NCBI GenBank assembly: GCA_964523895.1
Contig: CAZGBJ010000007.1
Location: 23,000 to 86,999, forward strand
Length of the DNA stretch: 64,000 nt
Source of the DNA: an uncultured Enterobacteriaceae bacterium
GTDB lineage: Bacteria; Pseudomonadota; Gammaproteobacteria; Eutrophobiales; Eutrophobiaceae
Direction: 5' to 3'
Part shown: in pieces, positions 1 to 16,803 of the stretch
How the letters are laid out: every line of letters starts with the position of its first letter
How positions within the stretch are numbered: position 1 is the first letter of the stretch
The notes under the pieces: generated by a model
Told to the model about the DNA's origin: nothing
Databases searched by the model: none
Seen by the model: the letters and a program-made list of their open reading frames with translations, nothing else
Made by a program: the position numbers and the translations under genes

Positions 1-948
1 GGCCCGGTTGAAACAGTAATATTAGGTGAGTCGGAAGATATCCTTAAGAAGATACCATTAAATAACTACTCTGTTTCATCAGCAGAAAACACTGGTTTAT
101 CTCTGGCGTTTGAACGTGACCTTTCAGTTAGCTCTCATGCTTTTCTAAAATCACATGTGATGAATGGTCAAGCCGTATTACCTGTTGCGGTTATTATCGA
201 ATGGTTTGCTCACGGTGCATTACATTTGAATCCGGGTATGCAATTTAACGGATTCGATGATTTTCGTGTTTTAAAAGGCGTTACGTTAAAAGCCGACGAA
301 AATATTCGTTTACAAATTCTTGCGGGAAACATTATTCATAAAGGCGATGTCTCTTTAGTTCCTGTTGAGCTACGTTCGAATGAATTATTACATGCCAGCG
401 CGACAATGATTCTGGCTGATAGTTATGAAACTAATGTTTTGCCACAATTAGAGGGTGTAAACGAAAAATATAATAGAAAACAAGGCGAGTATTATCAAAA
501 TGGACAGTTATTTCATGGACATGATTTACAAGGTATTTCAGAAGTAACACATTGCAGTGACAAAGGTATTGTCGCCAATATAAATGCAGCACCACAACCA
601 TCAACATGGATGAATCAACCGATACGTTCGAGCTGGTTAACCGATCCTTTAATTATTGATTCAGCATTCCAGATGATGATCCTTTGGAGCTTTGAAGAAA
701 GCGGAATCGCTTCTTTACCAACAACAATTGCATCGTATCGTCAATATCAACGGAGCTACCCAAAAGATAGTGCAAAAATTATTGCTGAAGTTAATGAACA
801 AACTGATCATAGAGCTAATGCAGCAATAGAGTTTCTTGATAGTAAAGGACAGTTGGTCGCCTTGATGGATGGATATGAATGTGTACGTGACAGCTCATTG
901 CAAATAGCATTCAAGAAAAATAAACTGGATAAAAAAGAAAACGTATAA
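1..948 (+). CDS. pfaA: 3-prime part of a PfaA-like multidomain PKS, C-terminal polyketide-type dehydratase domain. Gene starts upstream of the window.
   Basis: Frame 1 is open from nt 1 into ORF 157..948. HxxxGxxxxP motif (HVMNGQAVLP) and downstream DSAFQ (DxxxQ) motif are typical of PKS DH domains. The position upstream of a PfaC-like gene fits a PfaA C-terminus (KS-AT-ACPn-KR-DH). Confidence 0.6.
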   Translation, partial: GPVETVILGESEDILKKIPLNNYSVSSAENTGLSLAFERDLSVSSHAFLKSHVMNGQAVLPVAVIIEWFAHGALHLNPGMQFNGFDDFRVLKGVTLKADENIRLQILAGNIIHKGDVSLVPVELRSNELLHASATMILADSYETNVLPQLEGVNEKYNRKQGEYYQNGQLFHGHDLQGISEVTHCSDKGIVANINAAPQPSTWMNQPIRSSWLTDPLIIDSAFQMMILWSFEESGIASLPTTIASYRQYQRSYPKDSAKIIAEVNEQTDHRANAAIEFLDSKGQLVALMDGYECVRDSSLQIAFKKNKLDKKENV

Positions 949-978
949 AATAGATTGGGTATTTAGAAGATAGATAAT

Positions 979-2040
979 ATGAAAAAAACAGCATTAATAA
1001 CAGGTATAACGGGACAGGATGGGGCTTATCTTGCCGAATTTTTATTGAACAAGGGATATATTGTTCATGGTATTAAACGAAGAAGTTCGCTGATTAATAC
1101 CGATAGAATAGATCACTTATATCAAGATCCGCATATGTCTGGTCGTAATTTAATTTTACATTATGGTGATATGACTGACTCTACTAGTCTAACGCGCGTT
1201 ATTCAGGAATCCCAACCGGACGAAATTTATAATCTTGCCGCACAAAGTCATGTTGCTGTCTCATTTGAAGAACCGGAATACACGGCTGACTCAGATGCGT
1301 TAGGTCCATTAAGATTACTTGAAGCAATCCGGATTCTTAAGCTTGAAAAGAAGACACGTTTTTATCAAGCTTCAACATCTGAACTTTATGGTTTGGTTCA
1401 GGAAGTGCCACAAAAAGAAACCACCCCATTTTATCCACGTTCACCCTATGGTGTTGCAAAGTTGTATGCTTATTGGATAACGATTAACTATCGTGAAGCT
1501 TATGGTATTTATGCGTGTAACGGTATTTTATTTAATCATGAGTCGCCAGTACGCGGAGAAACCTTTGTTACCAGAAAGATTACTATGGCCTTGAGTCGGA
1601 TAAAGCATGGTTTACAGGACAAGTTATATATTGGCAACCTCAATGCAAAACGTGATTGGGGACATGCACGAGATTACGTCGAGATGCAATGGCTTATGTT
1701 GCAACAAAAAGAGCCGGAAGACTATGTTATCGCTACTGGCGTACAAAATAGTGTTAGGGAATTTATTGAATTCGCTGCCAAAGCGATTGATATAAACATA
1801 ACATGGAAAGGTCAGGATAAAGATGAAAAAGGTTATGATGATGAAGGAAATTGCATTGTCGAAGTTGATCCACGCTACTATCGTCCTGCTGAAGTTGAAA
1901 GTTTGTTAGGTGATCCGACTAAAGCAAGAGAAAATTTAGGTTGGACTCCGGCAACGAGCTTGCAGGGCTTAATTGATGAAATGATGCAGAAAGATATGCA
2001 GCTCGTTGAAAATGAAGTATTAATAAATAACCAAAAGTAA
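979..2040 (+). CDS. gmd: GDP-mannose 4,6-dehydratase
   Basis: Near full-length colinearity with E. coli Gmd from memory (ALITGxTGQDGxYLAEFLL, [20 protein letters not shown], DPRYxRPAEV, LGDPTKA). Confidence 0.9.
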
Positions 2041-2045
2041 ATTTC

Positions 2046-3005
2046 ATGCAAAAGGATTCCCGTATATACGTTGCCGGTCATAACGGTTTGGTAGGAAGTG
2101 CCATTTGCCGAAAGCTAAAAGCCGATCATCATAATAATCTCATTGCACGGTCACACAAAGAACTTGATCTCTGCAATCAATTAGCAGTAGATGCGTTCTT
2201 TAAAGAAGAACAACCCGAATACGTGTTTCTTGCAGCAGCGGTTGTTGGTGGTATACATGCGAATGAAACACAGGCGGTAAGTTTTCTAAGAGATAATCTC
2301 CTGATACAAACACATGTAATTGAAGCGGCTTATAAACATGGTGTAAAAAAAATGGCTTTTTTAGGGTCTACCTGTATCTATCCACGAGATTGTCCGCAGC
2401 CAATTAAGGAAGAATACTTACTAACTGGACCGTTAGAAGAAACTAACCAATGGTATGCGATAGCCAAAATTTCCGGCATTAAACTATGCCAGGCTTACCG
2501 CAAAGAATATGGTTTTAATGCAATCTCATTAATGCCAACCAATCTTTATGGACCAAATGATAATTTTGATTTAATGGACTCGCATGTTTTACCTGCTTTA
2601 ATACGAAAGTTTCATGAAGGTAAAGTCAGCAATAAAGAAGCGGTAGAGATTTGGGGCACTGGTAATCCTTATCGAGAGTTTCTCTATATTGATGATCTGG
2701 CAGATGCTAGTTGCTTTCTTATGCAAAATTATGATGATGACTCAATTATTAATGTTGGAACAGGCCAGGATATTAGTATTAGAGAATTGGCTGAATTAAT
2801 TAAAAAAATAGTTGGTTATAAAGGAAAAATTATTTTTGATTCCTCCAGGCCAGATGGCACTCAAAAAAAATGTTGTGATGTTACAAAATTAAATAATTTA
2901 GGTTGGAAAAGTAAAACGACTTTGCAAGATGGGTTAAAAATAACTTACGATTGGTATATTAACAATTTACCCTCTGAAACTGTTGATATTAAAGCAATAT
3001 TATAA
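2046..3005 (+). CDS. fcl: GDP-L-fucose synthase (GDP-4-keto-6-deoxymannose 3,5-epimerase/4-reductase)
   Basis: Matches E. coli Fcl/WcaG: VAGHxGxVGSAI, YAIAKIAGIKLCxxY, MPTNLYGPxDNF, NVGTGxDxxIRELA. The start lies 6 nt after the gmd stop. Confidence 0.85.
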   Translation: MQKDSRIYVAGHNGLVGSAICRKLKADHHNNLIARSHKELDLCNQLAVDAFFKEEQPEYVFLAAAVVGGIHANETQAVSFLRDNLLIQTHVIEAAYKHGVKKMAFLGSTCIYPRDCPQPIKEEYLLTGPLEETNQWYAIAKISGIKLCQAYRKEYGFNAISLMPTNLYGPNDNFDLMDSHVLPALIRKFHEGKVSNKEAVEIWGTGNPYREFLYIDDLADASCFLMQNYDDDSIINVGTGQDISIRELAELIKKIVGYKGKIIFDSSRPDGTQKKCCDVTKLNNLGWKSKTTLQDGLKITYDWYINNLPSETVDIKAIL

Positions 3006-3010
3006 GTATC

Positions 3011-4006
3011 ATGAAAAATATTCTGGTAACGGGTGGTGCTGGCTATATCGGGTCCCATGCTTGTAAAGCGTTGGCAAAAGCAGGATATAAGCCAATCACG
3101 TTTGATAATCTGTCAACAGGCCATGAGCATGCTGTAAAATGGGGGCCGCTTGAAATTGGTGATATCCGAGATACTGGGAAGCTATCATTAGTATTCGAAC
3201 AGTATAAACCTGAAGCGGTTATTCATTTTGCCTCAAAGATTGTGGTGTCAGAGTCGGTCAAGGCTCCTGATGAATACTATGATAATAATGTTAACGGCAC
3301 CTTAAGTTTGCTTAATGTGATGAAAACGCATTCAGTTAACGCAATTGTATTTTCAAGTACCGCATCGGTATACGGTTATCCTGAATCAAATCCTATCAAC
3401 GAATCTCATCCGTTGAAGCCGATAAATCCTTATGGAAAAACGAAACTGGCGTGTGAATGGCTATTACAGGATTACCAGAGTGCTTATGAAATAAACTATG
3501 TTGCATTAAGGTATTTCAATGCCGCAGGTGCCGATGCAGAAGATGAGTTAGGTGAAGAGCATGAGCCTGAAACACATTTAATACCATTAATTTTAAAAGC
3601 GACAAAAGACAAAACGAGCGTTTCAATTTTTGGCGATGATTATAATACGCTCGATGGGACTTGTATCCGTGATTATATCCATGTTTCAGACTTAGCAGAT
3701 GCCCATATTAAAGCATTGGAATATTTATTTAAACATAACAAATCAGAAACATTTAATCTTGGAACAGGAAAAGGATATTCAGTCAGGCAAGTATTAAATA
3801 CGGTTAAAAAAATCACTTCGGAAGATATTAGTGAAATAAAATCCGATAGAAGGTCAGGTGACCCAGATAGTCTGGTTGCAAAATCAGATTTGGCACAAAA
3901 GACATTAGCGTGGCAACCAAAGTTAAGTGACATAGATAATATAATTAAAACAGCCTGGAAATGGCATATACAAAAGCCTGTTCTTGGCTTGGATGACAAG
4001 TCATGA
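3011..4006 (+). CDS. galE: UDP-glucose (or UDP-GlcNAc) 4-epimerase
   Basis: SDR fold with VTGGAGYIGSH, YxxxK (PYGKTK), RYFNAAGA and DGTCIRDYIHVxDLA, as in GalE. The stop overlaps the start of the next gene (ATGA at 4003-4006). Confidence 0.8.
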   Translation: MKNILVTGGAGYIGSHACKALAKAGYKPITFDNLSTGHEHAVKWGPLEIGDIRDTGKLSLVFEQYKPEAVIHFASKIVVSESVKAPDEYYDNNVNGTLSLLNVMKTHSVNAIVFSSTASVYGYPESNPINESHPLKPINPYGKTKLACEWLLQDYQSAYEINYVALRYFNAAGADAEDELGEEHEPETHLIPLILKATKDKTSVSIFGDDYNTLDGTCIRDYIHVSDLADAHIKALEYLFKHNKSETFNLGTGKGYSVRQVLNTVKKITSEDISEIKSDRRSGDPDSLVAKSDLAQKTLAWQPKLSDIDNIIKTAWKWHIQKPVLGLDDKS

Positions 4007-7000
4007 AAAGTAAACAAGTTGCCGCAATAGTTGGTATTGGCGGCATCTTTCCTGGTGCACGTGATCTGGATGAATTCTGGCAGAATATTTTGAATGGGAA
4101 AGAGTCTGCTATTGATGTAGGTGCTGATCGTTGGCGTTTAGAGCCTGATGAACTGTACTCTCCTGATGTGTCTCCCGATAAAATTAATTCCCGTCGTGCC
4201 TGTTTGATTCAAAATTTTGAATTTAATCCAGAAGGGTTGAATGTTGATGCTGAGTTATTGCAACGTCTTGACCCGATGTATCAAATTTTATTGCATGCAG
4301 GTCGAGATGCCTGGGCTGATGCAAAAACGGATGCTATTAATAAACAACGTGTTGGTATTGTCATCGGTAATATCGCACTTCCTACTGAATCATCCTCACA
4401 ACTTAGTGATGAAATATTTAAACAACTCTTTGAATCACAGTTAGGTATTAATTCAGACCAACAAAAAGAAAAAATAGAGCCTTTAAATAGATATGTTGCC
4501 GGGTTGCCGGGTGGCTTATTGGCAAAAGCTTTAGGTTTTGGTGCAGGTGCTTATACATTAGATGCGGCATGTTCTTCCTCACTTTATTCTCTTAAGTATG
4601 CCATTGATGAATTAGTTGCTGGTCGCACTGATGTTATGTTAGCTGGTGGTTTATCTCGGCCGGATTGTTTGTATACACAAATGGGTTTTTCTCAACTCAA
4701 TGCCATTTCAAAGTCAGGTCGTTGTTCACCGTTTGATAGCAAAGCTGATGGTCTTGTAGTAGGTGAGGGAGCAGGTATTTTTGTACTTAAGCGATTAAGC
4801 GATGCCATCGAACAAGATGATCATATCTATGCCACGATAGAAGGTATTGGCCTTTCAAATGATATCGAAGGCAATATCATGTCGCCAGATTCGGAAGGTC
4901 AAGGCCGTGCAATGCAATCGGCTTATGAAATGGCCGGGTGGAAACCAAATCAAGTACAACATATTGAATGTCATGGCACAGGAACACCTGTTGGTGATGG
5001 CGTTGAATTCACCTCATTAAAAAATCTATGGCAAAGTCATAAGGTAGAGGGTGAATGTGTTATTGGATCAGTAAAAAGTAATGTCGGTCACTTATTAACA
5101 GCTGCTGGTGCTGCGGCATTAATGAAAACATTGTTAGCAATGAAACACGGTGTGTTACCGCCAACAGCAAATTATGAAAACCCTTCCAGTAAAATAGATT
5201 TAACAAATAGTCCATTCAAAGTTCTGGATAAAGCTGAGACGTGGAGTGTAAAAAACAATAGTCCAAGACGTGCTGCGATTAGTGGTTTTGGATTTGGTGG
5301 TATCAATGCGCATGTTCTTTTACAAGAGTATTTGCCAGAAACAATTAAAACGTTACCTTTAACGAGTATCGAAACTACGCATTCTGATAAATGTGATATT
5401 GCTATTGTAGGAATGGAATCACGACTAGGACCATGGAATGAACAGAATGATTTCGATAACGCATTATTATTTGGTTCAAATAAAGATGTTACTCATCCAA
5501 ACAATTGGTGGGGAGCAGATGGCAAAGCGTATCAGGGATATCTAATTGATGAAGTTAAAGTGCCTTTAGGTCGCTATAGAATACCTCCGGCTGAATTAAA
5601 AGAGATGTTGCCGCAGCAATTGTTAATGCTTGAAGTTGCAGCTAATGCATTGGATGACGCGAAACTTTCCGAGCTATCAAAAGAACAACAATGTCGTACA
5701 GGTGTTTTTATCGGTATTGCACTTGATTTGAATACAACTAATTTCCATTTTCGCTGGATGCAAAAGAAATATGCAAGAGAATGGCTGGAGAGATTAGGCA
5801 TTGAATTAAATAATATTGAATTAGATGAATGGGTAGAAAACCTTAAACAGTCATTTGGTCCATCATTATCTGCAAATCGAACTATGGGTGCGTTAGGCGG
5901 TATTGTTGCCAGTCGAATTGCCCGTGCTTTCCGAGTTGGTGGTCCCGCTTTTACTATTTCTTCTGAAGAAACATCGGGGTTACGAGCACTGGAATCCGGT
6001 GTGCGTGCCTTGCAACAGCAAGAACTGGATCAGGTAATTATAGGTGCTGTTGATCTGGCTAGTGATATTAGAGCTGTTAAAGCTAATGCAGATCAGATTG
6101 ATACTATTGCTGATGGAGCTACTGCCTTTGTCTTGAAACGTCACGAAGATGCCGTGCGTGATGGCGATAATGTTTATGCATTAATAAAAGGTATTGGTGT
6201 TGCGTCGGCAGGAGGCTGTGATGCAAAGGTTGAAGAATCTGGAATGGTTGCTGCTATTCAAAATGCTTGTTCAGATGCACAATGTCATTTAGATGCTATT
6301 GATTTAGTAAGTCAATCTTCTGTGAATGATGAAGTTGATATTCCTGCATTAGAAAATGCAACTATTAATACTTTCTCGCTTGGTCATTCGGGTGCAGCAA
6401 ATGGCTTAATGAATGTAGCGAATACAGTGACGCTATTAAATCAGTGTCTTCTGCCAAATGAGAATAATTCAAATGCGCGTTACTGGTTAAAAGATCGAAT
6501 AAAAGGCCCGAGACAGAGTTTAGTAAACAGTACAAGTATTGACGGTGTGTGTGTCAGTGTTGTTTTACAACAAGCCCAGAATAAAACACAGGCTAATATT
6601 GGTCTTAAAAATGTTAACTCTAAATTATTTTCGTTGTCAGCCAAGAATAAAGAATTATTAATAAATAAAATTAAAGCGTTATCTTTTGTTGATGTTGTTG
6701 AAGATACTAAAGAAAAATTTCGGGCTGTTATTCTTGTTAATAACGAAAATGAATTAAATTTAGCTCGCGAAGAACTCATTGCTAGCATACAAAAAAATAA
6801 CTCAATTGATAATGGACGCTGTTTTTATTCAGCGTCTCCTTTAGCGAAAGAAGGGAAAGTTGCCTTTGTCTATCCCGGCTCAGGCAATCATTTCTTCGGT
6901 ATGGGACAAGAGTTAGGTGTTAGTTTTCCTGAAGTATTGGAAAATTTAGATCAAGAAAATGAAATGCTATCTTCACAATTTGCAAAAGGTCGCTTTTGGC

Positions 7001-10000
7001 AAAATCACCATCATGAGGATAATCCTGGTAAAGAATTAAGCCATGAAGAAGTTATTTTCGGACAAGTGTGGTTGGGTACTTTTGTTAGTGATGTTGTAAC
7101 CAGCTTTGACGTTAAACCTGATGCCGTTATTGGTTATAGTCTGGGTGAGACTGCCGGTTTTTTCTCAACACGGACATGGACGGCTCGTGATGAGATGTTA
7201 AAACGAATTCAACAAAGTACTTTGTTTACAGAAGAATTGGCCGGCCCTTGTAAATCTGTACAAAAAGCATGGGGTACGGATAAACCTGTTAATTGGGCAC
7301 TGGGTGTAATTAATACCAGTGCCGAAAAAGTTAAAACGGTATTAAAAAAGTATGAACATGTTTATTTATTAATTATTAATACACCAAATGAATGTGTTAT
7401 TGGTGGAGACAAAACCAAATTAAACAAGGCTGTTAAAGAACTTGCTGTACAATATCATCCCTTGTCAGGTGTAACGACGGTGCATTGTGAAGTCGCTAAG
7501 CCTGTTGAAAAAGCGTATCGGGATTTACATATTTTTGAAACGACGCCGGCAAAAGGCGTTACTTTTTATAGTGGAATACGTGGTGGTGCATACGAGGTAA
7601 CACAGAATTCAGCCGCTGACTCTATTCTGGACCAAGCATTGGCTCCTTTCGATTATACCAAGGTGATTAATAGTGCCTATGAAGATGGTGTACGTCTGTT
7701 TATTGAAATGGGGCCAGGTGGTTCTTGTGCAAGAATGATCGATCAGATCCTTGAAGAGAAATCGCATTATGCGAAAGCAGTTTGTGTTAAAGGACAAAAC
7801 AGCGTTGATAATGTATTGCAAACACTAGCTAGATTATATGTTGAAGGCGTGGATGTGGATTTTTCAAAATTACAAACTAATAATGTTAAACAAGGAAAGA
7901 AATATAATAGCTATATTAGTGTTAAAACAGGTGGCGATCCGTTTAAAGTTCCACAACTTCCTATGTCTAAATCCGATGTTGTTGAAGAGATACATATTGA
8001 AAAAAATAACGTCGCAACAGATGTAATGTCATTACCAATGACTGCAAATGGTGACTATCAACCAACAATCGAGCCAATAATTCAACAAATGCAGCTCGCT
8101 GAACGAGCTCGTTCTGAAGCACAAGAAGCATTTCTGAGAGTTAGTCAGGGTATGACCGAGACTTTGACTCAAGCTATTAATATGCAAATGCAACTTTTGG
8201 ATAATGGCAACATTGATTTATCGCAAGTAATAATTAATCAAGAACAGTCTGATAGAGAAGAAACTCAAAGTAAGGATTGTCTGTTTGATCGTGAACAATG
8301 TATGGAAATAGCAATCGGATCTATTAGAAAAGTACTAGGTTCAGCATTTGCGGATATTGATACTTATCCCACAAGAGTACGTTTGCCTGATGAACCTTTA
8401 ATGTTAGCTGATCGTATTATAAGTATCGAAGGTGAAGCTGATTCTTTAAAAAACAACCCCAATACAAATGGGCGCGTTATCACTGAACATGATGTCTTGC
8501 CGGGAGCCTGGTATCTGGATCAGGGACGTATACCAACCTGTATCGCTGTTGAAGCAGGACAAGCCGATTTATTTTTATCCGGCTATTTAGGTATTGATCA
8601 TATATCCAAAGGACTGGCGGTTTATCGTTTATTAGATGCAAAAATTACCTTTCATGGATCCTTACCGGAAGCAGGACAAACTATTCATTATGATATTCGT
8701 ATCGATGAGTTCTTCCGACAAGATGACACTTATCTATTTCGTTTTAATTTTGAAGGTAGCGTCGCCTGCACGGATGCAGGCGGTAGAGTCGAGTCTGGAA
8801 CAGAGACCGGGATTGGTAGACCATTACTAACCATGACAGAAGGTTGTGCCGGTTTCTTTACTCAACAAGAATTAGATGCAGGAAAAGGCATCGTCTTAAC
8901 TAATATTGAAAAACAAAAAGCTCAGGGAATATTTACAAGTGACTGGAATGAATTAGTTGCTATGCAGAATGAAAGTTATAACGATGAACAGTTAAATGCG
9001 TTACGGCAAGGTGATTTAGCAACTTGTTTTGGTGGGGCATTTAATAATATTGAATTGAATAATCCAGTGGGTTTACCCAGTGGTCGCATGACATTAGTTC
9101 ATCGTATTTTAAATCTTGATCCTAAAGGTGGTCGTTTTGGAATAGGTCAAATTACTGGTGAAGCAGACATTCATCCTGATGACTGGTTCTTAACTTGTCA
9201 CTTTGTTGATGATCGCGTGATGCCTGGAACATTAATGTATGAATGTTGTTTGCATACCCTGCGTGTTTATTTATTAGGCATGGGTTGGATAGGTGAAACA
9301 GATGAGTTTGTTTATGAACCGATTATTGGCGAAGTGAGTCAGTTGAAATGTCGAGGACAAGTCACGGAAGAAACTAAAGCCGTTCAATATGAAATTACAT
9401 TAAAAGAAATTGGCTATCGTAATGATGGAACACCTTATGTATTAGCGGATGCATTAATGTACGGCGATCACCGTGCCATAGTGCAAATGAAAAATATGTC
9501 TGTTCAATTAAGCGGCTTAAAACGCGATAAATTGGAAGCGCTTTGGGAAAAGCAAATTAATAATATGAGTGGTTCTGAAATGGAGATTTTCAGAGGTGCT
9601 CATACAAAACAAGTTTTATTCGATAACGATTCGATTTTAGCTTTTGCTATTGGTAAGCCTTCCGAAGCCTTTGGTGATAAATACAAAATATTTGATTCCG
9701 AACGCAAGATTGCACGTCTACCAGGGCCGCCATACAAATTTCTTGATCGAATCGTTTCTATTAAAGATTGTGAACAATGGGTATTGAAAGCCGGTGGCGT
9801 TATCGAAGCTGAATATGATGTCCCCGTAGATGAATGGTACTTTACTGAAGATAATCAACCTTATATGCCGTTTGCCGTATTGCTTGAAGTGGCTTTGCAA
9901 CCTTGTGGCTGGTTAGCGGCATATTTAGGTTCAGCATTAAGCAGTGATATTGATATTTCATTTAGAAATTTAGGTGGCAAGGCAACACAATACATAAAAG

Positions 10001-10704
10001 TAACTCCAGAGATTGGGACGCTCACTACAAAAGTAAAGATGACCAGTGTCTCGCAGTCTGGCGGTATGATTATTCAGACGTATGATTACGAAATGACGTC
10101 AGATCAAGGGTTGGTATATAAAGGCGATACTAATTTTGGTTTCTTTTCAAAACAGGCATTGGCTGATCAAATTGGTATTCGCGATGCCAAACCTTATAGT
10201 CCAACAGAATTAGAACAGTCTCGAAGCAAATCCTTTGTTTATTCAGTTGATGCACCGATGCCTGCGGATATGATGCGTATGGTCGATGAGATTAGTCACT
10301 ATGATCCTGAAGGTGGGCCAAATAACCTGGGTTTTATAGAAGGAAAAGCAAGTGTAAAACAAGATGCCTGGTTTTTTAAAGCCCATTTTTATGAAGATCC
10401 GGTTTGGCCAGGTTCGTTAGGATTAGAATCTTTCATGCAGTTATTAAAAGCTTTTGCATGGGAGCGATGGCAGGGTGAACTACGGATCGGCGATTTTTCT
10501 TTTGATAGTATGGCTTTGCAGCAGGTTCACCAATGGGTATACCGAGGTCAAATCCTGCCGATTGATGAAAAAGTGACGGTTCAGGCGGTCATTACCGAGA
10601 TTGATGATGAGTCCAAAACCATTAAAGCGGATGGTTTTTTGACTGTTGATGGACGAATTATCTATCAGATGAAGAACTTTGCGCTTAGAATAACCTCCCT
10701 ATGA
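4003..10704 (+). CDS. pfaC: PfaC-like PUFA/secondary-lipid synthase subunit. KS (Cys190, nt 4570), KS-beta/CLF-like domain without active Cys, acyltransferase (GYSLGE, nt 7132-7149), then two FabA-type dehydratase domains (CHFVDDRVMPG at nt 9196; AHFYEDPVWPG at nt 10381).
   Basis: DAACSSS, HGTGT and GHLLTAAG motifs of the KS. A second KS-like fold has ISSEETSG in place of the Cys motif. An AT GxSxG motif is present. Two HxxxD/MPG FabA-like cores are present. The size (2233 aa) and domain order fit PfaC with an inserted PfaB-like AT. Confidence 0.8.
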   Translation: MKSKQVAAIVGIGGIFPGARDLDEFWQNILNGKESAIDVGADRWRLEPDELYSPDVSPDKINSRRACLIQNFEFNPEGLNVDAELLQRLDPMYQILLHAGRDAWADAKTDAINKQRVGIVIGNIALPTESSSQLSDEIFKQLFESQLGINSDQQKEKIEPLNRYVAGLPGGLLAKALGFGAGAYTLDAACSSSLYSLKYAIDELVAGRTDVMLAGGLSRPDCLYTQMGFSQLNAISKSGRCSPFDSKADGLVVGEGAGIFVLKRLSDAIEQDDHIYATIEGIGLSNDIEGNIMSPDSEGQGRAMQSAYEMAGWKPNQVQHIECHGTGTPVGDGVEFTSLKNLWQSHKVEGECVIGSVKSNVGHLLTAAGAAALMKTLLAMKHGVLPPTANYENPSSKIDLTNSPFKVLDKAETWSVKNNSPRRAAISGFGFGGINAHVLLQEYLPETIKTLPLTSIETTHSDKCDIAIVGMESRLGPWNEQNDFDNALLFGSNKDVTHPNNWWGADGKAYQGYLIDEVKVPLGRYRIPPAELKEMLPQQLLMLEVAANALDDAKLSELSKEQQCRTGVFIGIALDLNTTNFHFRWMQKKYAREWLERLGIELNNIELDEWVENLKQSFGPSLSANRTMGALGGIVASRIARAFRVGGPAFTISSEETSGLRALESGVRALQQQELDQVIIGAVDLASDIRAVKANADQIDTIADGATAFVLKRHEDAVRDGDNVYALIKGIGVASAGGCDAKVEESGMVAAIQNACSDAQCHLDAIDLVSQSSVNDEVDIPALENATINTFSLGHSGAANGLMNVANTVTLLNQCLLPNENNSNARYWLKDRIKGPRQSLVNSTSIDGVCVSVVLQQAQNKTQANIGLKNVNSKLFSLSAKNKELLINKIKALSFVDVVEDTKEKFRAVILVNNENELNLAREELIASIQKNNSIDNGRCFYSASPLAKEGKVAFVYPGSGNHFFGMGQELGVSFPEVLENLDQENEMLSSQFAKGRFWQNHHHEDNPGKELSHEEVIFGQVWLGTFVSDVVTSFDVKPDAVIGYSLGETAGFFSTRTWTARDEMLKRIQQSTLFTEELAGPCKSVQKAWGTDKPVNWALGVINTSAEKVKTVLKKYEHVYLLIINTPNECVIGGDKTKLNKAVKELAVQYHPLSGVTTVHCEVAKPVEKAYRDLHIFETTPAKGVTFYSGIRGGAYEVTQNSAADSILDQALAPFDYTKVINSAYEDGVRLFIEMGPGGSCARMIDQILEEKSHYAKAVCVKGQNSVDNVLQTLARLYVEGVDVDFSKLQTNNVKQGKKYNSYISVKTGGDPFKVPQLPMSKSDVVEEIHIEKNNVATDVMSLPMTANGDYQPTIEPIIQQMQLAERARSEAQEAFLRVSQGMTETLTQAINMQMQLLDNGNIDLSQVIINQEQSDREETQSKDCLFDREQCMEIAIGSIRKVLGSAFADIDTYPTRVRLPDEPLMLADRIISIEGEADSLKNNPNTNGRVITEHDVLPGAWYLDQGRIPTCIAVEAGQADLFLSGYLGIDHISKGLAVYRLLDAKITFHGSLPEAGQTIHYDIRIDEFFRQDDTYLFRFNFEGSVACTDAGGRVESGTETGIGRPLLTMTEGCAGFFTQQELDAGKGIVLTNIEKQKAQGIFTSDWNELVAMQNESYNDEQLNALRQGDLATCFGGAFNNIELNNPVGLPSGRMTLVHRILNLDPKGGRFGIGQITGEADIHPDDWFLTCHFVDDRVMPGTLMYECCLHTLRVYLLGMGWIGETDEFVYEPIIGEVSQLKCRGQVTEETKAVQYEITLKEIGYRNDGTPYVLADALMYGDHRAIVQMKNMSVQLSGLKRDKLEALWEKQINNMSGSEMEIFRGAHTKQVLFDNDSILAFAIGKPSEAFGDKYKIFDSERKIARLPGPPYKFLDRIVSIKDCEQWVLKAGGVIEAEYDVPVDEWYFTEDNQPYMPFAVLLEVALQPCGWLAAYLGSALSSDIDISFRNLGGKATQYIKVTPEIGTLTTKVKMTSVSQSGGMIIQTYDYEMTSDQGLVYKGDTNFGFFSKQALADQIGIRDAKPYSPTELEQSRSKSFVYSVDAPMPADMMRMVDEISHYDPEGGPNNLGFIEGKASVKQDAWFFKAHFYEDPVWPGSLGLESFMQLLKAFAWERWQGELRIGDFSFDSMALQQVHQWVYRGQILPIDEKVTVQAVITEIDDESKTIKADGFLTVDGRIIYQMKNFALRITSL

Positions 10705-11900
10705 ATTACTCCCGCGTACAAATGGAATCTATCGGTTATGAATTGCCACCGGTAGTGATTACTTCAGAAGATCTCGAGCATCGCCTAATGCCGATGTACG
10801 ACGCATTGCATATTGCTCCCGGTCAATTACAAGCCTTAACAGGTATTAGTGAACGTCGTTGGTGGGAAGAAGGACATGTACTATCCGATGGTGCAGCGGC
10901 AGCGGCTCGCAAAGCTCTGGAACAATCAAATGTTGAGGCAAAAGATATCGAAGCACTTGTTTATACGGGTGTTTGTCGGGAAAATTTTGAACCAGCTACA
11001 GCCTGTTCTGTTGCCGCCCAATTAGGCATTGGTGACGAAACTAATATTTATGACATATCCAACGCTTGTCTGGGCGTAATGAATGGTATTATTGATATTG
11101 CTAATCGTATCGAATTAAAACAAATCCGTGCCGGCATGGTGGTTTCCTGTGAAAGCTCTCGTGAAATCGTTGAGATTATGATTGAGCGTATGTTGCAGGA
11201 TAAAAGTATGGGTATGTTCACTAATTCATTGGCGACATTAACCGGTGGTTCAGGTGCTGCAGCAGTATTACTGACGGATGGTTCTTTCGATAATAAGGAG
11301 ACGCATCGCTTGGTTGGTGGCGCTAATCAATCTGCACCTGAATTTCATAAATTATGCCGTTGGGGTGTTACATTAACACCGCAGGCGATTGGTGATTTAA
11401 TGTTTTCACCGGATAAATTACTGGCTGCAATTGATCAGGTGATGGAGCCAGAAGTATTACCTAGCGCGATCAAGGAAGTGATGACCAGTGATAAATTGCC
11501 ACCGGCATTAACGAGTATAATGCCTTCAGAAAAGTTGCCGGCGGCATTATCTGAATTTATGTCTACCGATTCTGTATCAGTACTAAAGCACGGTGCAATA
11601 CTGGGTGTTAAAACCTGGGGTAATTTTCTGGGTAAAATGGGTTGGGCCAGAGACCAGGTTGATAAAGTCATTTGTCATCAGGTCGGTGAAGGTCATCGTG
11701 ATACCATATTAAAAGAACTGGGTATCGCACCCGAAAAAGATTTCAGTACTTATAAATATCTCGGCAATATCGGTACTGTTTCTGTTCCTTTAACAGCAGC
11801 CATTGCTGAACAAAGGCAGTTTCTTAAGAAAGGTGATCGCGTTAGTTTTCTTGGCATTGGTAGTGGTTTGAATTGCATGATGCTTGGTTGGGAATGGTAA
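10701..11900 (+). CDS. oleA: OleA, FabH-like thiolase for head-to-head Claisen condensation of acyl-CoAs
   Basis: KAS III/thiolase fold with ISNACLG (Cys123, nt 11067). The C-terminus LGIGSGLNCMMLGWEW and KLCRWG closely resemble Xanthomonas/Stenotrophomonas OleA (GIGSGLNC). It is followed by oleB-C-D homologs in canonical order. It carries a roughly 40-aa triple-repeat insertion not present in canonical OleA. Confidence 0.8.
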   Translation: MNYSRVQMESIGYELPPVVITSEDLEHRLMPMYDALHIAPGQLQALTGISERRWWEEGHVLSDGAAAAARKALEQSNVEAKDIEALVYTGVCRENFEPATACSVAAQLGIGDETNIYDISNACLGVMNGIIDIANRIELKQIRAGMVVSCESSREIVEIMIERMLQDKSMGMFTNSLATLTGGSGAAAVLLTDGSFDNKETHRLVGGANQSAPEFHKLCRWGVTLTPQAIGDLMFSPDKLLAAIDQVMEPEVLPSAIKEVMTSDKLPPALTSIMPSEKLPAALSEFMSTDSVSVLKHGAILGVKTWGNFLGKMGWARDQVDKVICHQVGEGHRDTILKELGIAPEKDFSTYKYLGNIGTVSVPLTAAIAEQRQFLKKGDRVSFLGIGSGLNCMMLGWEW

Positions 11901-11924
11901 TATTCTCCTGATCTAAATTTTATT

Positions 11925-12815
11925 ATGTCTTTTCCGGATTATCCTGATAACAATTCTTGTTATATGTCTGTTAATAACAGGCGACTACATTATCTCGAAG
12001 GAGGCAATGAACATCCTGAAACCGTTGTGATGTTACACGGGAATCCAAGTTGGTCATTTTATTATCGTCATCTGTTTACTGCATTAATCGATAAATATCA
12101 TTGTATTGTTCCTGACCATATTGGTATGGGTTTATCGGATAAGCCTGCTAGTAGTGAATATGACTTTACGCTAAAGCAACGCGTTGATGATCTTGATACG
12201 CTACTGTCCAGTTTGAATGTAGATAATAATTTAACGCTAATTGTCCATGATTGGGGCGGCATGATTGGTATGGCATACGCTACACGATATCCCGACAAGA
12301 TAAGACGATTAGTCATTTCCAATACAGCAGGTTTTCATATCCCGCAGGGAAAACAAATTCCCTGGCAATTAAAACTAAGTCGCACGCCATTAATTGGTTC
12401 TTTGTTGATTCAAGGACTCAATGCTTTTTGTCGAGGTGGTGTGATTCAATGTGTTACGCGAAAACCAATGAACAAAGATGTCAAAGATGCTTATTTAGCG
12501 CCTTATGATAGTTGGTCGAATAGATTATCTGTTTTACGATTTGTTGAAGATATTCCGTTAGATGAAGAGCATGTTACTTATGATGTGGTTGATAATGTTG
12601 ACAATAATTTACAACAGTTTTCAAGTTTACCAATGCTCATTTGCTGGGGATTAAATGACTTTGTCTTCGATCAACATTATCTAGCTGAATGGAAAAAACG
12701 TATGCCTATTGCGGAATACCATGAGTTTGATGCCGGACATTATTTGCTAGAAGATGCGAGTGATGAGGTTATTCCGATTATTAAACAATTTTTAGAAAAA
12801 CATATAATTAAATAA
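11925..12815 (+). CDS. oleB: OleB, alpha/beta-hydrolase (haloalkane dehalogenase-like) beta-lactone decarboxylase
   Basis: HGNPSWSFYYR and VHDWGG nucleophile-elbow region of the haloalkane-dehalogenase-like alpha/beta hydrolase family. Position between oleA and oleC. Confidence 0.75.
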   Translation: MSFPDYPDNNSCYMSVNNRRLHYLEGGNEHPETVVMLHGNPSWSFYYRHLFTALIDKYHCIVPDHIGMGLSDKPASSEYDFTLKQRVDDLDTLLSSLNVDNNLTLIVHDWGGMIGMAYATRYPDKIRRLVISNTAGFHIPQGKQIPWQLKLSRTPLIGSLLIQGLNAFCRGGVIQCVTRKPMNKDVKDAYLAPYDSWSNRLSVLRFVEDIPLDEEHVTYDVVDNVDNNLQQFSSLPMLICWGLNDFVFDQHYLAEWKKRMPIAEYHEFDAGHYLLEDASDEVIPIIKQFLEKHIIK

Positions 12816-12926
12816 TTATTTTTATTGCCACGGAGCACACAGAGGCCACGGAGAAAAGAAAAATGAAACTATTTAGTAAAAAAAATATGTATATCTCTGT
12901 GTTCTCTGTGGCTAATATTTAAAATT

Positions 12927-14582
12927 ATGATTACGGCAAATATTGCATCCCATTTGCCAGTAATGGCTGAGAAACAGCCCGAAACGTATGCGGTTGTTAA
13001 ACAGAGCAAGAACAAATCAAAAAAACCTTCATATGAAATTGCTTATACCTATAAGCAACTGGATGACGTTAGCAATCTTATTGCTAATGGTTTAGAAGCA
13101 TACGGAGTAAAAAAAGGAACGAGAACAGTACTTATGGTTAAACCGGGGCTTGATTTTTTTGCGTTGGTTTTTGCTTTGTTTAAACTTGAAGCGGTTCTGG
13201 TTGCTGTTGATCCGGGTATGGGAATTAAAAATCTGGGTAAATGTCTTAAAGAAGCTGAGCCTGAAGCCTTTATAGGCAACAGCACAGCGCATCTAGCTAG
13301 AATTACATTATCGTGGTCAAAGAATACAATAGATAAAACAGTTTTAACCGGGAGTAATATTTTATTAAATCAATTTTTAACAGACCTTAACAAGATAAAA
13401 TTGTTTGGAAAGCAGTCTGAAAGAAATAAAATAGAAACAAAGGCTGAAGATGTCGCTGCGATTCTTTTTACCAGCGGTAGTACCGGTGTTCCTAAAGGCG
13501 TTGTTTATACACATGCTAATTTTACGGCGCAAGTTGAAGCGTTAAAAAAACTTTATAATATTCAGCCAGGTGAAGTTGATCTTGCAACATTTCCATTGTT
13601 TGCCTTATTTGCTCCAGCGATGGGAATGACATCAATTATTCCACAGATGGATTTTACTAAACCCGGTACAGTTGATCCAACAAGAATTATCGATGCCGTG
13701 ACACAATATAAATGCACCAATATGTTTGGTTCGCCTGCCTTGCTTAATCGAGTGGGAAAATGGAGTGAGCATAAGGAAATTAAACTATCATCATTGAAAC
13801 GCGTATTGTCAGCCGGTGCACCTGTGTCTTCAACTGTGTTGCAACGCTTTAAAAAAATATTGAATGAAGATGTACAGATTTTTACACCCTACGGTGCAAC
13901 GGAATCATTACCAGTCAGTTCTATAGGCAGTGATGTGATTATTAATGAAACATCTAAGCTGACGGCTAAAGGAAAAGGCGTATGCGTTGGCAAAGCTGTT
14001 ACAGGCCTGGATGTGAAAATTATAAAGATTAATGACAATGTTATTCCAGAATGGAAAGATGAACTTGAATCACCAGTTAATGAAATAGGTGAAATTTGTG
14101 TTAAAGGTCCACAGGTGACACGAAATTATTTTAATCGTAATGATGCAACCGGGCTAGCTAAGATAAGAACAGATAATGGTTTTTACCACCGTATGGGTGA
14201 TGTAGGTTATCTTGATTGGCAAGATAGACTTTGGTTTTGTGGCCGTAAGAGTCAACGTGTCATTATTGAAACAGAAACAATGTTTACAATATGCTGTGAA
14301 GCAATATTTAATTCGCATCCTTTTGTTTTTCGATCAGCTTTAGTTGGAGCGCAAGCGAATAAAAAAACAATCCCTGTGATTTGTATTGAACTTGAGCCTG
14401 AACATAAATGGTTTAATAAAGAAGAATTTAAAAAAGAGTTGTTGTCTTTAGCTTCTAACTCTGAACTTACAAAGAATATCAAACATATTCTTTTTCATTC
14501 TGGGTTCCCGGTAGATATTAGACATAATGCCAAAATTGGTCGGGAAAAACTGACGATATGGGCTAGTAAAGAAGTCACATGA
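12927..14582 (+). CDS. oleC: OleC, AMP-dependent synthetase/ligase family (beta-lactone synthetase)
   Basis: Adenylate-forming enzyme motifs TSGSTGxPKG (FTSGSTGVPKGV) and YGATE. Position in the oleABCD order. Confidence 0.75.
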   Translation: MITANIASHLPVMAEKQPETYAVVKQSKNKSKKPSYEIAYTYKQLDDVSNLIANGLEAYGVKKGTRTVLMVKPGLDFFALVFALFKLEAVLVAVDPGMGIKNLGKCLKEAEPEAFIGNSTAHLARITLSWSKNTIDKTVLTGSNILLNQFLTDLNKIKLFGKQSERNKIETKAEDVAAILFTSGSTGVPKGVVYTHANFTAQVEALKKLYNIQPGEVDLATFPLFALFAPAMGMTSIIPQMDFTKPGTVDPTRIIDAVTQYKCTNMFGSPALLNRVGKWSEHKEIKLSSLKRVLSAGAPVSSTVLQRFKKILNEDVQIFTPYGATESLPVSSIGSDVIINETSKLTAKGKGVCVGKAVTGLDVKIIKINDNVIPEWKDELESPVNEIGEICVKGPQVTRNYFNRNDATGLAKIRTDNGFYHRMGDVGYLDWQDRLWFCGRKSQRVIIETETMFTICCEAIFNSHPFVFRSALVGAQANKKTIPVICIELEPEHKWFNKEEFKKELLSLASNSELTKNIKHILFHSGFPVDIRHNAKIGREKLTIWASKEVT

Positions 14583-15577
14583 AAGCCCTGGTGACTGGAG
14601 GTGGCGGTTTTCTTGGCAGTGCTATTGTAAAAGCATTACTGGATAAAGGTAACTCTGTCAGGGCTATACAAAGGGGAGACTATCCCTTTTTAAAAGAGCT
14701 GGGTGCTGAAGCTATTCAGGGTGATTTGACCAGACCTGACGATATTAATGCGGCTGCCAGCGGATGTGATGTTATCTTTCATGTGGCAGCAAAAGCTGGT
14801 GTATGGGGTGATTATAACGATTATTATCAAGCTAATGTGGTCGCTACTAAAAACGTATTACAGGCTTGTCGGGTCAATAATGTTAATAATCTGATATATA
14901 CCAGTACACCCAGCGTTGTCTTCAATGGTGAAAATGAAGAAGGCATTAACGAGTCAGCGCCTTATGTAAAAAACTGTTTTAATGCCTATCAAAAAACCAA
15001 AGCAGAAGCAGAGCAGCTTGTTATCAATGCAAATAATACTGATTTAAAAACAGTGTCATTAAGACCGCATTTAATCTGGGGTCCGGGTGATCCTCATCTT
15101 GCGCCAAGAATTATTAGCCGGGCGAAAACAGGTCGTTTAAGACTAGTAGGCAATAAAAATAATAAAGTTGATTCCTGTTATATAGATAATGCAGTTCAGG
15201 CTCATTTGTTAGCGGCTGATTGTTTGCAGTCAAATAAAGTTTGCGCGGGGAAAATATATTTTATTAGCAATGATGAACCGATTAGCATGGCTGATTTAAT
15301 TAATAAAATTTTAACTGCCGCTGATTTGCCGTCAGTCAATAAAAATTTACCTGAAAGAGCAGCCTATATCATTGGCTATGTGCTGGAAAAAAGTTATACA
15401 TTATTAAATATAAATAACGAACCTGTAATGACACGATTTGTTGCCCGGCAACTTTCGACGTCACATTGGTTTGACCTGTCAGCTGCAAAACAGGATCTAG
15501 GTTATCAAGCGCAGGTCAGTATTGATGAAGGAATGAAATGCCTTAAAGAATCACTTGCTTCTGATGTTTCTAAATGA
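14579..15577 (+). CDS. oleD: OleD, NAD(P)H-dependent reductase of the 3-beta-hydroxysteroid dehydrogenase/epimerase-dehydratase family
   Basis: VTGGGGFLGSAIV Rossmann motif with YxxxK (YQKTK), 3beta-HSD/NAD-epimerase family. ATGA overlap with oleC and with the downstream PPTase. Confidence 0.75.
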   Translation: MKALVTGGGGFLGSAIVKALLDKGNSVRAIQRGDYPFLKELGAEAIQGDLTRPDDINAAASGCDVIFHVAAKAGVWGDYNDYYQANVVATKNVLQACRVNNVNNLIYTSTPSVVFNGENEEGINESAPYVKNCFNAYQKTKAEAEQLVINANNTDLKTVSLRPHLIWGPGDPHLAPRIISRAKTGRLRLVGNKNNKVDSCYIDNAVQAHLLAADCLQSNKVCAGKIYFISNDEPISMADLINKILTAADLPSVNKNLPERAAYIIGYVLEKSYTLLNINNEPVMTRFVARQLSTSHWFDLSAAKQDLGYQAQVSIDEGMKCLKESLASDVSK

Positions 15578-16296
15578 ATAACGTTAATAAATTACTGGAA
15601 ACCAAGATTGAATTGTCAGATAAGAAAATACACGTTTTTTTATTGGAACTTGATTTGTTTAATGGTGATGATTTATATGTTTATTTGCCAGAAGATGAAG
15701 CTAAAAGGGCTGCTAGATTAAAGATAGAGGAAAAAAAGAATCAATTTGTAATCAGTAGGGGGATACTCAGATTATTGTTGTCAAATTGTTTGCAGAAAAA
15801 ACCAGAGAAAATAAATTTCTTATATGGGCAGCATTGCAAACCCGCTATCGAAGATAAGTATAATAATAAATCAGTTGAATTCAATGTGTCCCATTCTGGG
15901 GGTTATGCATTAATAGCAATAACGTTAGATAATAAAGTGGGCGTTGATATTGAAAAAATAAATCATGAAATAGATTATCAATCGTTATCTGATCGATTTT
16001 TCAGTGGCAAAGAAAATGATGAATTAAGAAGTTTGGATGAAAATGAGAAATTAGATGCTTTTTATCGGGCATGGGTAAGAAAGGAATCTTTCATAAAAGC
16101 AACAGGGAAAGGTATTACTTTTGGTCTTGATAGTTTTTCTGTTTCGTTGGCTGAAAGTAGAAAATCCAGTATTGAAGTTATTTCTGAAAATTTAATAAAT
16201 GAACAATGGTATTGCTACGATTTAAATAATCTGGATGACTATAAACTGGCGTTAACAAGTTGTAGCAAGGAACAGGAACTTATTATTTTCCGGTAA
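15574..16296 (+). CDS. pfaE: Sfp-type 4-prime-phosphopantetheinyl transferase (PfaE-like)
   Basis: PPTase motifs FNVSHSG, GVDIE and WxRKESFIKATGKG. Terminal gene of the pfa/ole operon. Confidence 0.75.
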   Translation: MNNVNKLLETKIELSDKKIHVFLLELDLFNGDDLYVYLPEDEAKRAARLKIEEKKNQFVISRGILRLLLSNCLQKKPEKINFLYGQHCKPAIEDKYNNKSVEFNVSHSGGYALIAITLDNKVGVDIEKINHEIDYQSLSDRFFSGKENDELRSLDENEKLDAFYRAWVRKESFIKATGKGITFGLDSFSVSLAESRKSSIEVISENLINEQWYCYDLNNLDDYKLALTSCSKEQELIIFR

Positions 16297-16780
16297 GTAA
16301 CGCTGCCAATCGCTCAGTAGTTTGTCGTAAACGTGCTGTAAGTACTTTGGAAAGCTTCCATAATAATTTATTGCCCAGATCACGATGTTGATTAACAATG
16401 TCTTCGAAGTCTTCACGCGTAATCAATAAAACGATAGAGTCTTTTGAAGCAATCGCTGAAGCTGAAAATGGCTCGCCATCAATGATGCCCATTTCTCCAA
16501 TTGACTCTCCTGCTATTACCTCAGCAATCTTTAATTGCTCGTCATTAGGTAAGTTTTTAAATATATTTATCTCGCCTTTTATTATTATGCAAAGACAATT
16601 ACTTTTGTCCCCTTCATGTAAAACAACGCAGCCGACATCTGCAGAATAGGCTCTGCTCCATCGAGCCAGTATTTCCATTTCAGCTTCGTCAAAATCAGAG
16701 AAGAAATCAGATTCTTTGAGTAAATCATAAGTGGCTTTTCTAAATGAATCGCCGTTATCAAGTAATTGTAGTTCTTTCAT
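16283..16780 (-). CDS. Stand-alone cyclic-nucleotide-binding (CAP effector-like) domain protein
   Basis: cNMP-binding beta-roll signatures (GEMGIIDGEPFSASAIA) in a 165-aa protein. No HTH domain. Confidence 0.6.
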   Translation of the reverse strand: MKELQLLDNGDSFRKATYDLLKESDFFSDFDEAEMEILARWSRAYSADVGCVVLHEGDKSNCLCIIIKGEINIFKNLPNDEQLKIAEVIAGESIGEMGIIDGEPFSASAIASKDSIVLLITREDFEDIVNQHRDLGNKLLWKLSKVLTARLRQTTERLAALLTGK

Positions 16781-16803
16781 AGTTAAGTTTTCTCTAAATT
16801 TTT

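Follow-up and report, generated by a model that had tools for sequence, protein, structure and literature searches.

In a 64,000-nucleotide stretch of DNA from an uncultured Enterobacteriaceae bacterium (contig CAZGBJ010000007.1 of assembly GCA_964523895.1, forward-strand positions 23,000 to 86,999; hereafter, the window), the gene at 4003..10704 (+) encodes a 2233-residue protein, PfaBC, in which PfaB- and PfaC-type parts are fused. We consider it very probable that PfaBC is the fused subunit of a Type I-like 'secondary lipid' synthase with three subunits, that is, one of the polyunsaturated fatty acid (PUFA) type, with the gene order pfaD-pfaA-[insert]-pfaBC, and that the genes of this synthase are transcribed together with oleABCD and a 4'-phosphopantetheinyl transferase (PPTase) gene, its output going to an olefin. 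A first-pass annotation of the sequence had flagged the gene as an oddity, on account of an acyltransferase (AT) domain integrated in a PfaC-like subunit and of an enoyl reductase (ER) that was not in view. The architecture is already known and the pfa-ole locus is ordinary for its kind, while the place of the 'missing' reductase can be shown in relatives. The most informative context, the oleABCD and PPTase genes directly downstream, had been missed.

The gene starts with ATG, and profile searches with the whole protein and with pieces of it map its product as KS-CLF-AT-(DH'-DH)-(DH'-DH), where KS stands for ketosynthase, CLF for chain-length factor, DH for dehydratase and DH' for its non-catalytic counterpart. 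A homologue search returned more than 120 full-length PfaBC proteins, 52-84% identical and with the same Pfam content, and residue conservation was read from an alignment with 120 of them (121 sequences in all). The N-terminal domain (4021..5343, +; aa 7-447) is an active KS, matched by Pfam ketoacyl-synt (E 4e-71), Ketoacyl-synt_C and KAsynt_C_assoc, and its triad Cys190/His324/His363 is kept in 120/120 homologues. A second KS-like domain follows (5395..6468, +; aa 465-822), which matches ketoacyl-synt with E 1.2e-22 when scanned alone. We assign it as the CLF because Glu656 stands where the active-site Cys would be; this position is Glu, Asp or Gln across all homologues. The CLF region ends at about aa 890. 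For the N-terminal ~690 residues, the best match in the PDB is 6riw ('ORF10'; E 9.8e-116, the alignment running to aa 692), which we take to be the KS-CLF structure of Moritella PfaC.

The CLF is followed, ahead of the first FabA-type DH, by a PfaB-type AT (6847..7851, +; aa 949-1283), which has a Ser1046-His1161 dyad and no malonyl-specifying Arg/Gln pair. Its nucleophile elbow GYSLGE (7132..7149, +; Gly1044-Tyr-Ser1046), the sole GxSxG of PfaBC, sits at the position given in the first-pass annotation. The Pfam model Acyl_transf_1 matches this domain weakly, with 25.5-32.6 bits, at or below its gathering score of 32.7. Among NCBIfam models, TIGR02816 (PfaB_fam) matches with E 1.4e-28, fabD with E 1.9e-17 and mdcH with E 1e-15, and the closest solved relative of the region is the crystal structure of Shewanella PfaB (PfaBs; 9ry8, E 3.6e-28 over 349 residues). 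In the alignment with 9ry8, GYSLGE faces GYSMGE, and TTVH (H1161) faces TAMH, which contains the catalytic His573. Since TIGR02816, fabD and 9ry8 all match, the AT domain is clear and, despite the weak Pfam score, unambiguous. The same profile and structure matches bear out the proposal that PfaB- and PfaC-type parts are fused here, with the AT placed after the CLF and before the first FabA-type DH.

The residues of this AT suggest what it may do. PfaB-type ATs are distinguished from malonyl transferases by a Tyr before the nucleophile (His in malonyl-ATs), a Ser-His dyad, and the lack of both an Arg at the position of FabD R117 and a motif-I Gln (PMC12895367). All of these hallmarks are found here: the Tyr in GYSxG, the dyad S1046/H1161 and, in an alignment to PfaBs and a polyketide synthase AT, Q1071 at the FabD Arg117 position and I1018 at that of the motif-I Gln. 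A further hallmark is PGSGN in place of PGQxQ. Across the 121 PfaBC sequences H1161 is invariant, Tyr1045 is Tyr in 117 and His in 4, and the nucleophile Ser1046 is kept in 108 and replaced by Cys in 13. Also invariant is Arg1068, three residues before the FabD-Arg117 position, whereas PfaBs has Ala479 there. Which PUFA is finally made, and its release, depend on PfaB-type ATs, and transfer of long-chain (>C16) acyl groups has been shown for PfaBm and PfaBs only (PMC12895367). From these residues we infer that the integrated AT would be a long-chain acyltransferase of the PfaB type, and not a malonyl loader.

The C-terminal part of PfaBC carries two catalytic FabA-type dehydratase/isomerases, the number expected in the first-pass annotation. 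The first, DH1 (9073..9489, +; aa 1691-1829; His1733, Glu1747), matches Pfam FabA (E 2.9e-31), NCBIfam FabA PRK05174 (219.7 bits) and FabA structures in the PDB; the second, DH2 (10261..10671, +; aa 2087-2223; His2128, Glu2142), matches Pfam FabA (E 3.6e-32) and the FabA structure 3q62 (E 8.8e-18). The catalytic His and Glu of both are invariant in the 120 homologues. Between them is a FabA-like hot-dog domain, DH'2 (9718..10122, +; aa 1906-2040; Pfam FabA E 8.7e-12), with Asp1950 at the His position, where homologues have D, N, E, S or G. With Asp in place of His, DH'2 is consistent with being the inactive partner in a DH'-DH didomain. The first hot-dog region begins at about aa 1440, and a pseudo-hot-dog, undetected by profiles, is proposed 5' of DH1 at about aa 1440-1640. 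The domain matches of PfaBC are not chance hits. With an AT around residue 1046 and two catalytic DHs both found, the initial observation of an AT-bearing PfaC-like subunit stands.

It does not, however, depart from the bacterial norm, as had been supposed. The features of a pfaBC fusion are all present: an active KS followed by a Cys-less CLF, an AT between the CLF and the DHs, and two C-terminal FabA-type DHs. Myxobacterial Pfa3, which is KS-CLF-AT-DH-DH-AGPAT, has an identical order on one polypeptide as far as the DHs, and then an extra C-terminal acyltransferase domain that is not found here. Fused pfaBC genes [KS-CLF-AT-DH2] were described in 2011 by Shulse and Allen for cluster Types C, D, H, I and K (PMC3098273), and 'pfaBC' is a routine term in a 2026 survey (PMC13291983). 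Type D of Psychroflexus torquis, which makes membrane arachidonic acid (ARA) and eicosapentaenoic acid (EPA), and Type C of Desulfatibacillum alkenivorans likewise have the order KS-CLF-AT-DH2 in one protein, but pfaA is split in Type D, as it is in Type H, and pfaD is at the 3' end in Type C (PMC3098273).

The likeness to eukaryotic ORF B, also pointed out in the first-pass annotation, is looser than that to these bacterial precedents. Thraustochytrid (Schizochytrium) ORF B does have KS-CLF-AT on one polypeptide, as here, and to this extent the comparison holds. But in ORF B an ER comes next and the DHs are on ORF C, whereas PfaBC has two DH didomains after the AT and no ER domain; the exact match is the bacterial pfaBC. 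Moreover, eukaryotic PfaB-type ATs are without the conserved Tyr (PMC12895367), which is present in the AT of PfaBC. As for the canonical PfaABCDE synthases of Shewanella, Moritella and Photobacterium (Types A/B), they have the same catalytic domains and two FabA-type DHs, but their AT is carried by a separate PfaB behind a pseudo-KS, and not fused behind the CLF.

Immediately after pfaBC, all four genes of the OleABCD pathway are present in the order oleA-B-C-D (10701-15577), and a PPTase gene follows. The oleA-like gene (10701..11900, +) encodes a thiolase of the kind that performs head-to-head Claisen condensation and passes the cutoff of PRK09258 (478 bits, cutoff 285). The oleB-like gene (11925..12815, +) encodes a haloalkane-dehalogenase-like alpha/beta hydrolase of the beta-lactone decarboxylase family (Pfam Abhydrolase_1), and the oleC-like gene (12927..14582, +) an olefin beta-lactone synthetase with an AMP-dependent ligase fold (PRK09274, 721 bits, above cutoff). 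Next come an oleD-like gene for a 2-alkyl-3-oxoalkanoate reductase (14579..15577, +; a short-chain dehydrogenase/reductase matching Pfam 3Beta_HSD) and the gene of an Sfp/HetI-type PPTase, the equivalent of pfaE (15574..16296, +; Pfam ACPS and AASDHPPT_N). On the other side, three sugar-nucleotide genes separate pfaA from pfaBC, the last of them galE-like. ATGA overlaps of 4 nt join galE to the start of pfaBC and the stop of pfaBC to the start of oleA, and the coordinates give further 4-nt overlaps between oleC and oleD and between oleD and the PPTase gene. These overlaps, together with the gene run galE-pfaBC-oleABCD-PPTase, make this a single operon. Promoter and terminator scans over 1-19 kb gave no enrichment over shuffles and were uninformative.

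The arrangement is conserved in relatives. Scanning GTDB species genomes with PfaBC yielded ~25 loci in metagenome-assembled genomes of uncultured marine Gammaproteobacteria, 67-81% identical over the full length; their titles include 'Thiotrichaceae bacterium UBA7357/UBA7359/UBA973', OFTM102 and PRO17. By tblastn synteny over these loci, the order that is kept is pfaD-pfaA-[optional insert]-pfaBC-oleA-[optional insert]-oleB-oleC-oleD-PPTase, and throughout the relatives examined oleA is the next gene after pfaBC. Fimbriiglobus (Planctomycetota), with a PfaBC of 39-43% identity, has pfaA-pfaBC-oleABCD. In the window itself, pfaA is present as its 3' end (1..948, +; frame 1 open from base 1, stop 946-948), which codes for the PS-DH part of a PfaA-like subunit (Pfam PS-DH E 3.5e-14; positions 2316-2568 of the 2582 of the PfaA profile TIGR02813). 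The nearest homologues of this fragment outside the Gammaproteobacteria belong to Geobacteraceae, Desulfuromonadales and Gemmataceae (43-47%).

Twelve close relatives (8 genome loci and 4 metagenome loci, the latter with a PfaD identity of 71-85%; uncultured marine Gammaproteobacteria, 64-85% identical) show the region 5' of pfaA, and in 12/12 of them pfaD lies directly there. The upstream gene of these relatives encodes 560-570 aa, with a Pfam NMO domain and the helical insert typical of PfaD, and the full PfaA next to it is unsplit, of 2269 aa, with the domains KS-AT-4xACP-KR-DH (ACP, acyl carrier protein; KR, ketoreductase). Two of these loci, L072 and L074, read pfaD-pfaA-gmd, and thus have the same pfaA|gmd junction as the window. 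Furthermore, L072 overlaps another locus, L011, with 99.97% identity over 7.7 kb, so that one population holds the complete series pfaD-pfaA-gmd-fcl-...-pfaBC-oleABCD-PPTase. The Type I gene set consists of pfaD, an unsplit pfaA [KS-MAT-ACPn-KR] and a fused pfaBC; of these, the window shows pfaBC and the 3' end of pfaA, and all three are found in the 12 relatives and in the merged L072+L011. The comparison with the scheme of Shulse and Allen suggested in the first-pass annotation makes the cluster Type I-like by gene content and order: pfaA is unsplit, pfaBC is fused, the oleABCD genes are linked and, in relatives, pfaD precedes pfaA. The type is defined by KS phylogeny as well.

The known hosts of Type I are Geobacter, Desulfuromonas, Pelobacter and Gemmata; ole genes are often linked to fused-pfaBC clusters, and Type I was proposed to supply precursors for ole-dependent olefins, Geobacter bemidjiensis making a C31:9 product (PMC3098273). 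Like the Type I/K clusters (Geobacter, Desulfuromonas, Pelobacter, Gemmata, Desulfococcus), the present one combines a fused pfaBC, an unsplit pfaA with tandem ACPs, a separate pfaD and a link to oleABCD, and outside the Gammaproteobacteria its nearest homologues belong to the same host groups. It differs from them in its host, which is an uncultured marine lineage of Gammaproteobacteria with low GC (~37%) and not anaerobic Deltaproteobacteria or Planctomycetes, and in that pfa, ole and PPTase genes form one operon, partly with 4-nt overlaps and with sugar-nucleotide genes inside. What is new is modest: a Type I-like pfa-ole operon that is widespread in this lineage, the sugar-nucleotide genes within it, and the invariant Arg1068 of the AT.

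A precedent for coupling the two pathways exists in Shewanella, where OleA receives its 16:4 acyl group straight from the Pfa ACPs and OleBCD carry the product on to a 31:9 hydrocarbon, one Pfa synthase serving both PUFA and hydrocarbon synthesis (PMC6463001). The canonical Shewanella synthase thus also feeds OleABCD, but there the ole genes lie elsewhere and pfaD is 3' of pfaC, whereas in the relatives studied here pfaD is 5' of pfaA and the ole genes are in the operon. In the scheme proposed here, the PPTase would activate the tandem ACPs of PfaA, malonyl units would be loaded by the malonyl-acyltransferase domain of PfaA, and the chain would be elongated by the KS of PfaA and the KS-CLF pair of PfaBC. 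The KR would then reduce, the PS-DH and the two FabA-type dehydratase/isomerases would dehydrate and set the cis double bonds, and PfaD, probably encoded just upstream of the window, would reduce selected enoyl intermediates. The AT of PfaBC is predicted to handle the late or terminal acyl chain, which would make PfaBC the subunit for elongation, dehydration/isomerisation and off-loading. Finally, OleA may condense two polyunsaturated acyl chains head-to-head, these being 16:4 chains from the Pfa ACPs in the Shewanella model, and OleD, OleC and OleB may turn its product into a long polyolefin, a hydrocarbon of the C31:9 type.

Several points weigh against this scheme. The predicted chain length and degree of unsaturation are extrapolated from Shewanella and Geobacter. 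The matches of OleB, OleC, OleD and the PPTase remain under the cutoffs of NCBIfam equivalogs: haloalkane dehalogenase models match OleB with E 9e-45, below cutoff; the Shewanella-type equivalog NF045785 gives OleC 657 bits, under its cutoff of 850; NF042423 gives OleD 476 bits, under 580; and NF042922 (HetI) matches the PPTase with E 9.5e-45, again below cutoff. The operon shows no pfaT-type thioesterase gene. Last, the source organism's own pfaD was recovered neither from contigs of the same species, nor by a search with the PfaA fragment, nor by a metagenome scan with PfaD.

A more radical scenario is that the Pfa synthase is a dedicated hydrocarbon machine and not a PUFA synthase at all. 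Here, the AT may act as a gate: it would end elongation once the polyunsaturated chain is of middle length and pass this chain to the translationally coupled OleA, a specialisation to which Arg1068 and the occasional Cys nucleophile might belong. If so, the co-transcribed genes for GDP-fucose and UDP-hexose would tie hydrocarbon production to the synthesis of envelope polysaccharide. Taken with all these parts together, we regard the scenario as possible but rather doubtful.

Conversely, the cluster might make a membrane PUFA (EPA, ARA or a docosahexaenoic acid-like product), with the ole genes as a secondary sink and the AT of PfaBC as the terminal acyltransferase that releases the PUFA. Such a role is what PfaB-type ATs have elsewhere, setting and releasing the final PUFA (PMC12895367); the EPA/ARA producer Psychroflexus torquis (Type D) has the same KS-CLF-AT-DH2 fusion (PMC3098273), and the Shewanella synthase is a dual one (PMC6463001). 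However, the ATGA overlap of pfaBC and oleA, and the position of oleA after pfaBC across phyla, as far as Fimbriiglobus, argue for a dedicated coupling of the two pathways. In addition, the nearest outside homologues of PfaA are from hosts of Type I, the type with a proposed role in olefin synthesis, and PfaA is unsplit, unlike that of Type D. We therefore consider a membrane PUFA an unlikely main product, and retain the olefin-directed synthase as the better explanation.

As regards the reductase, the first-pass annotation had noted that no PfaD-like ER occurs in the 16 kb downstream of pfaBC, and this holds for the entire 64 kb: a PfaD profile, made from 7 proteins of relatives and run against the six-frame translation of the whole window, gave a best E of 2 with negative bits, tblastn for PfaD found nothing (best E 0.12), and Pfam scans of the called open reading frames (ORFs) between 16.3 and 48.6 kb revealed no NMO-type reductase. 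Two explanations had been offered, an ER encoded upstream of the window or a product more unsaturated than usual. The former is supported. The ER is out of view because the window begins inside pfaA and relatives place pfaD 5' of pfaA, and with high confidence, going by the layout of these relatives, we would expect the pfaD of the source organism roughly 6 kb to the left of the window, just 5' of pfaA. The upstream inspection that had been advised thus shows pfaD in the relatives, but the organism's own upstream region was not recovered. Six contigs of the same species (L001-L006) were found by an exact-protein look-up with gmd; all start inside pfaA and gain at most 1.9 kb, L001 and L002 carrying pfaA further upstream, through the KR domain. 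A search for homologues of the 938-aa PfaA fragment returned no full-length PfaA of the same species, and a metagenome scan with the PfaD of a relative no contig of the same sample at high identity. Assemblies are well known to break at tandem ACP repeats, which is probably why the same-species contigs end inside pfaA.

A synthase truly devoid of ER, yielding a fully conjugated or more unsaturated chain of the polyene type, would agree with the window being free of PfaD-like sequence and with the failure to recover the organism's pfaD from public assemblies. Yet the position directly 5' of pfaA, which pfaD occupies in 12/12 relatives, including the two with the same pfaA-gmd junction, is outside the window, and since all the same-species contigs break inside pfaA, the lack of evidence for pfaD is to be expected. 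The occurrence of pfaD in all these relatives makes a reductase-less, more unsaturated synthase very unlikely, and nothing supports the idea that the product is more unsaturated for want of an ER.

Only one other reductase-like gene is seen near the operon, at 20457-21473, for an oxidoreductase of the medium-chain dehydrogenase/reductase type (ADH_N + ADH_zinc_N). We rejected it as a substitute ER for lack of support: it lies 4 kb past the operon, with five ORFs in between (four on the opposite strand), and its fold differs from that of PfaD. A more distant cluster from a soil metagenome (L139; Ga0070734_10000070, 1-9395) has the order pfaA-pfaBC-oleA-pfaD, and its AT region is unmatched, query aa 914-1358 being missing between two tblastn segments. 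This layout indicates that the position of the ER and the presence of the AT vary outside the marine clade.

The three genes inserted between pfaA and pfaBC are gmd (979-2040, +; Pfam GDP_Man_Dehyd E 8e-153), a gene for an fcl-like epimerase/reductase (2046-3005, +; Pfam Epimerase) and the gene for a galE-like 4-epimerase (3011-4006, +; TIGR01179 with 439 bits, above cutoff). The insert is present in L008, L011, L022, L031, L072 and L074, and absent from L007, L013, L016, L018, L024, L028 and more relatives. In L022 (2700-9500), the pfaA|pfaBC junction also holds genes for a FecR-like protein, a Wzy_C O-antigen ligase, a HipA toxin and a helix-turn-helix regulator. At the oleA|oleB junction of other relatives (L007, 17838-18944; L009, 16676-19433), DinB/Pol IV, nucleotidyltransferase and HicB antitoxin genes are found. 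With such unrelated cargo, both junctions behave as hot spots of cargo insertion in this lineage.

Further along the window, a large surface-polysaccharide locus, with its genes on one strand, extends from 27664 to at least 48646, the scan having reached ~48.6 kb. It includes two UDP-glucose/GDP-mannose dehydrogenases, an adenylylsulfate (APS) kinase, a NusG/RfaH-like factor, an ABC exporter and a set of genes for a nonulosonic acid of the pseudaminic/legionaminic type (PseB-like, DegT aminotransferases, GNAT, NeuB and CMP-transferases). Because the insert varies, the junctions carry unrelated cargo elsewhere and this locus is in the window, gmd, fcl and galE most likely serve the envelope and not the lipid, and we rejected their membership of the pathway as the main reading. 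That they act in it, the product being a glycosylated (fucosylated) long-chain lipid comparable to the heterocyst glycolipids of the Type F hgl cluster, might be suggested by their place inside the operon, by the galE/pfaBC ATGA overlap and by a gmd-fcl insert common to several relatives, but it is hardly credible given that no glycosyltransferase is found in or beside the operon, that many close relatives are without the insert and that the polysaccharide/nonulosonic-acid locus (~27.6-48.6 kb) can account for the use of sugar nucleotides.

The locus documents a complete pfa-ole-PPTase cluster in a single operon in a widespread, uncultured gammaproteobacterial lineage of the aerobic ocean. The first descriptions of Type I came from anaerobic Deltaproteobacteria and one Planctomycete. 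The locus suggests that the sea holds another source of very-long-chain polyunsaturated hydrocarbons and, as a compact set of genes, could serve to make polyolefins in a heterologous host and to probe the function of PfaB-type ATs where release of a PUFA is not the end point.

Other genes of the window deserve brief mention. Convergent with the PPTase gene, at 16283-18228 (-), are genes for a cyclic nucleotide monophosphate (cNMP)-binding protein (165 aa) and a class-III aminotransferase (474 aa), a pair that is syntenic with the cluster in most relatives (75-88% identity). The 165-aa conserved neighbour (16283-16780) was considered as a PfaT-type thioesterase and rejected, being the cNMP-binding protein. 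A cytochrome P460 family protein (19251-19760, -), which adjoins a Sel1-repeat protein, is unrelated to the lipid cluster. Within the polysaccharide locus there is a FabH-like ketoacyl-ACP synthase III (42511-43428), and past 56 kb the GC content of the window drops to 30-34%.

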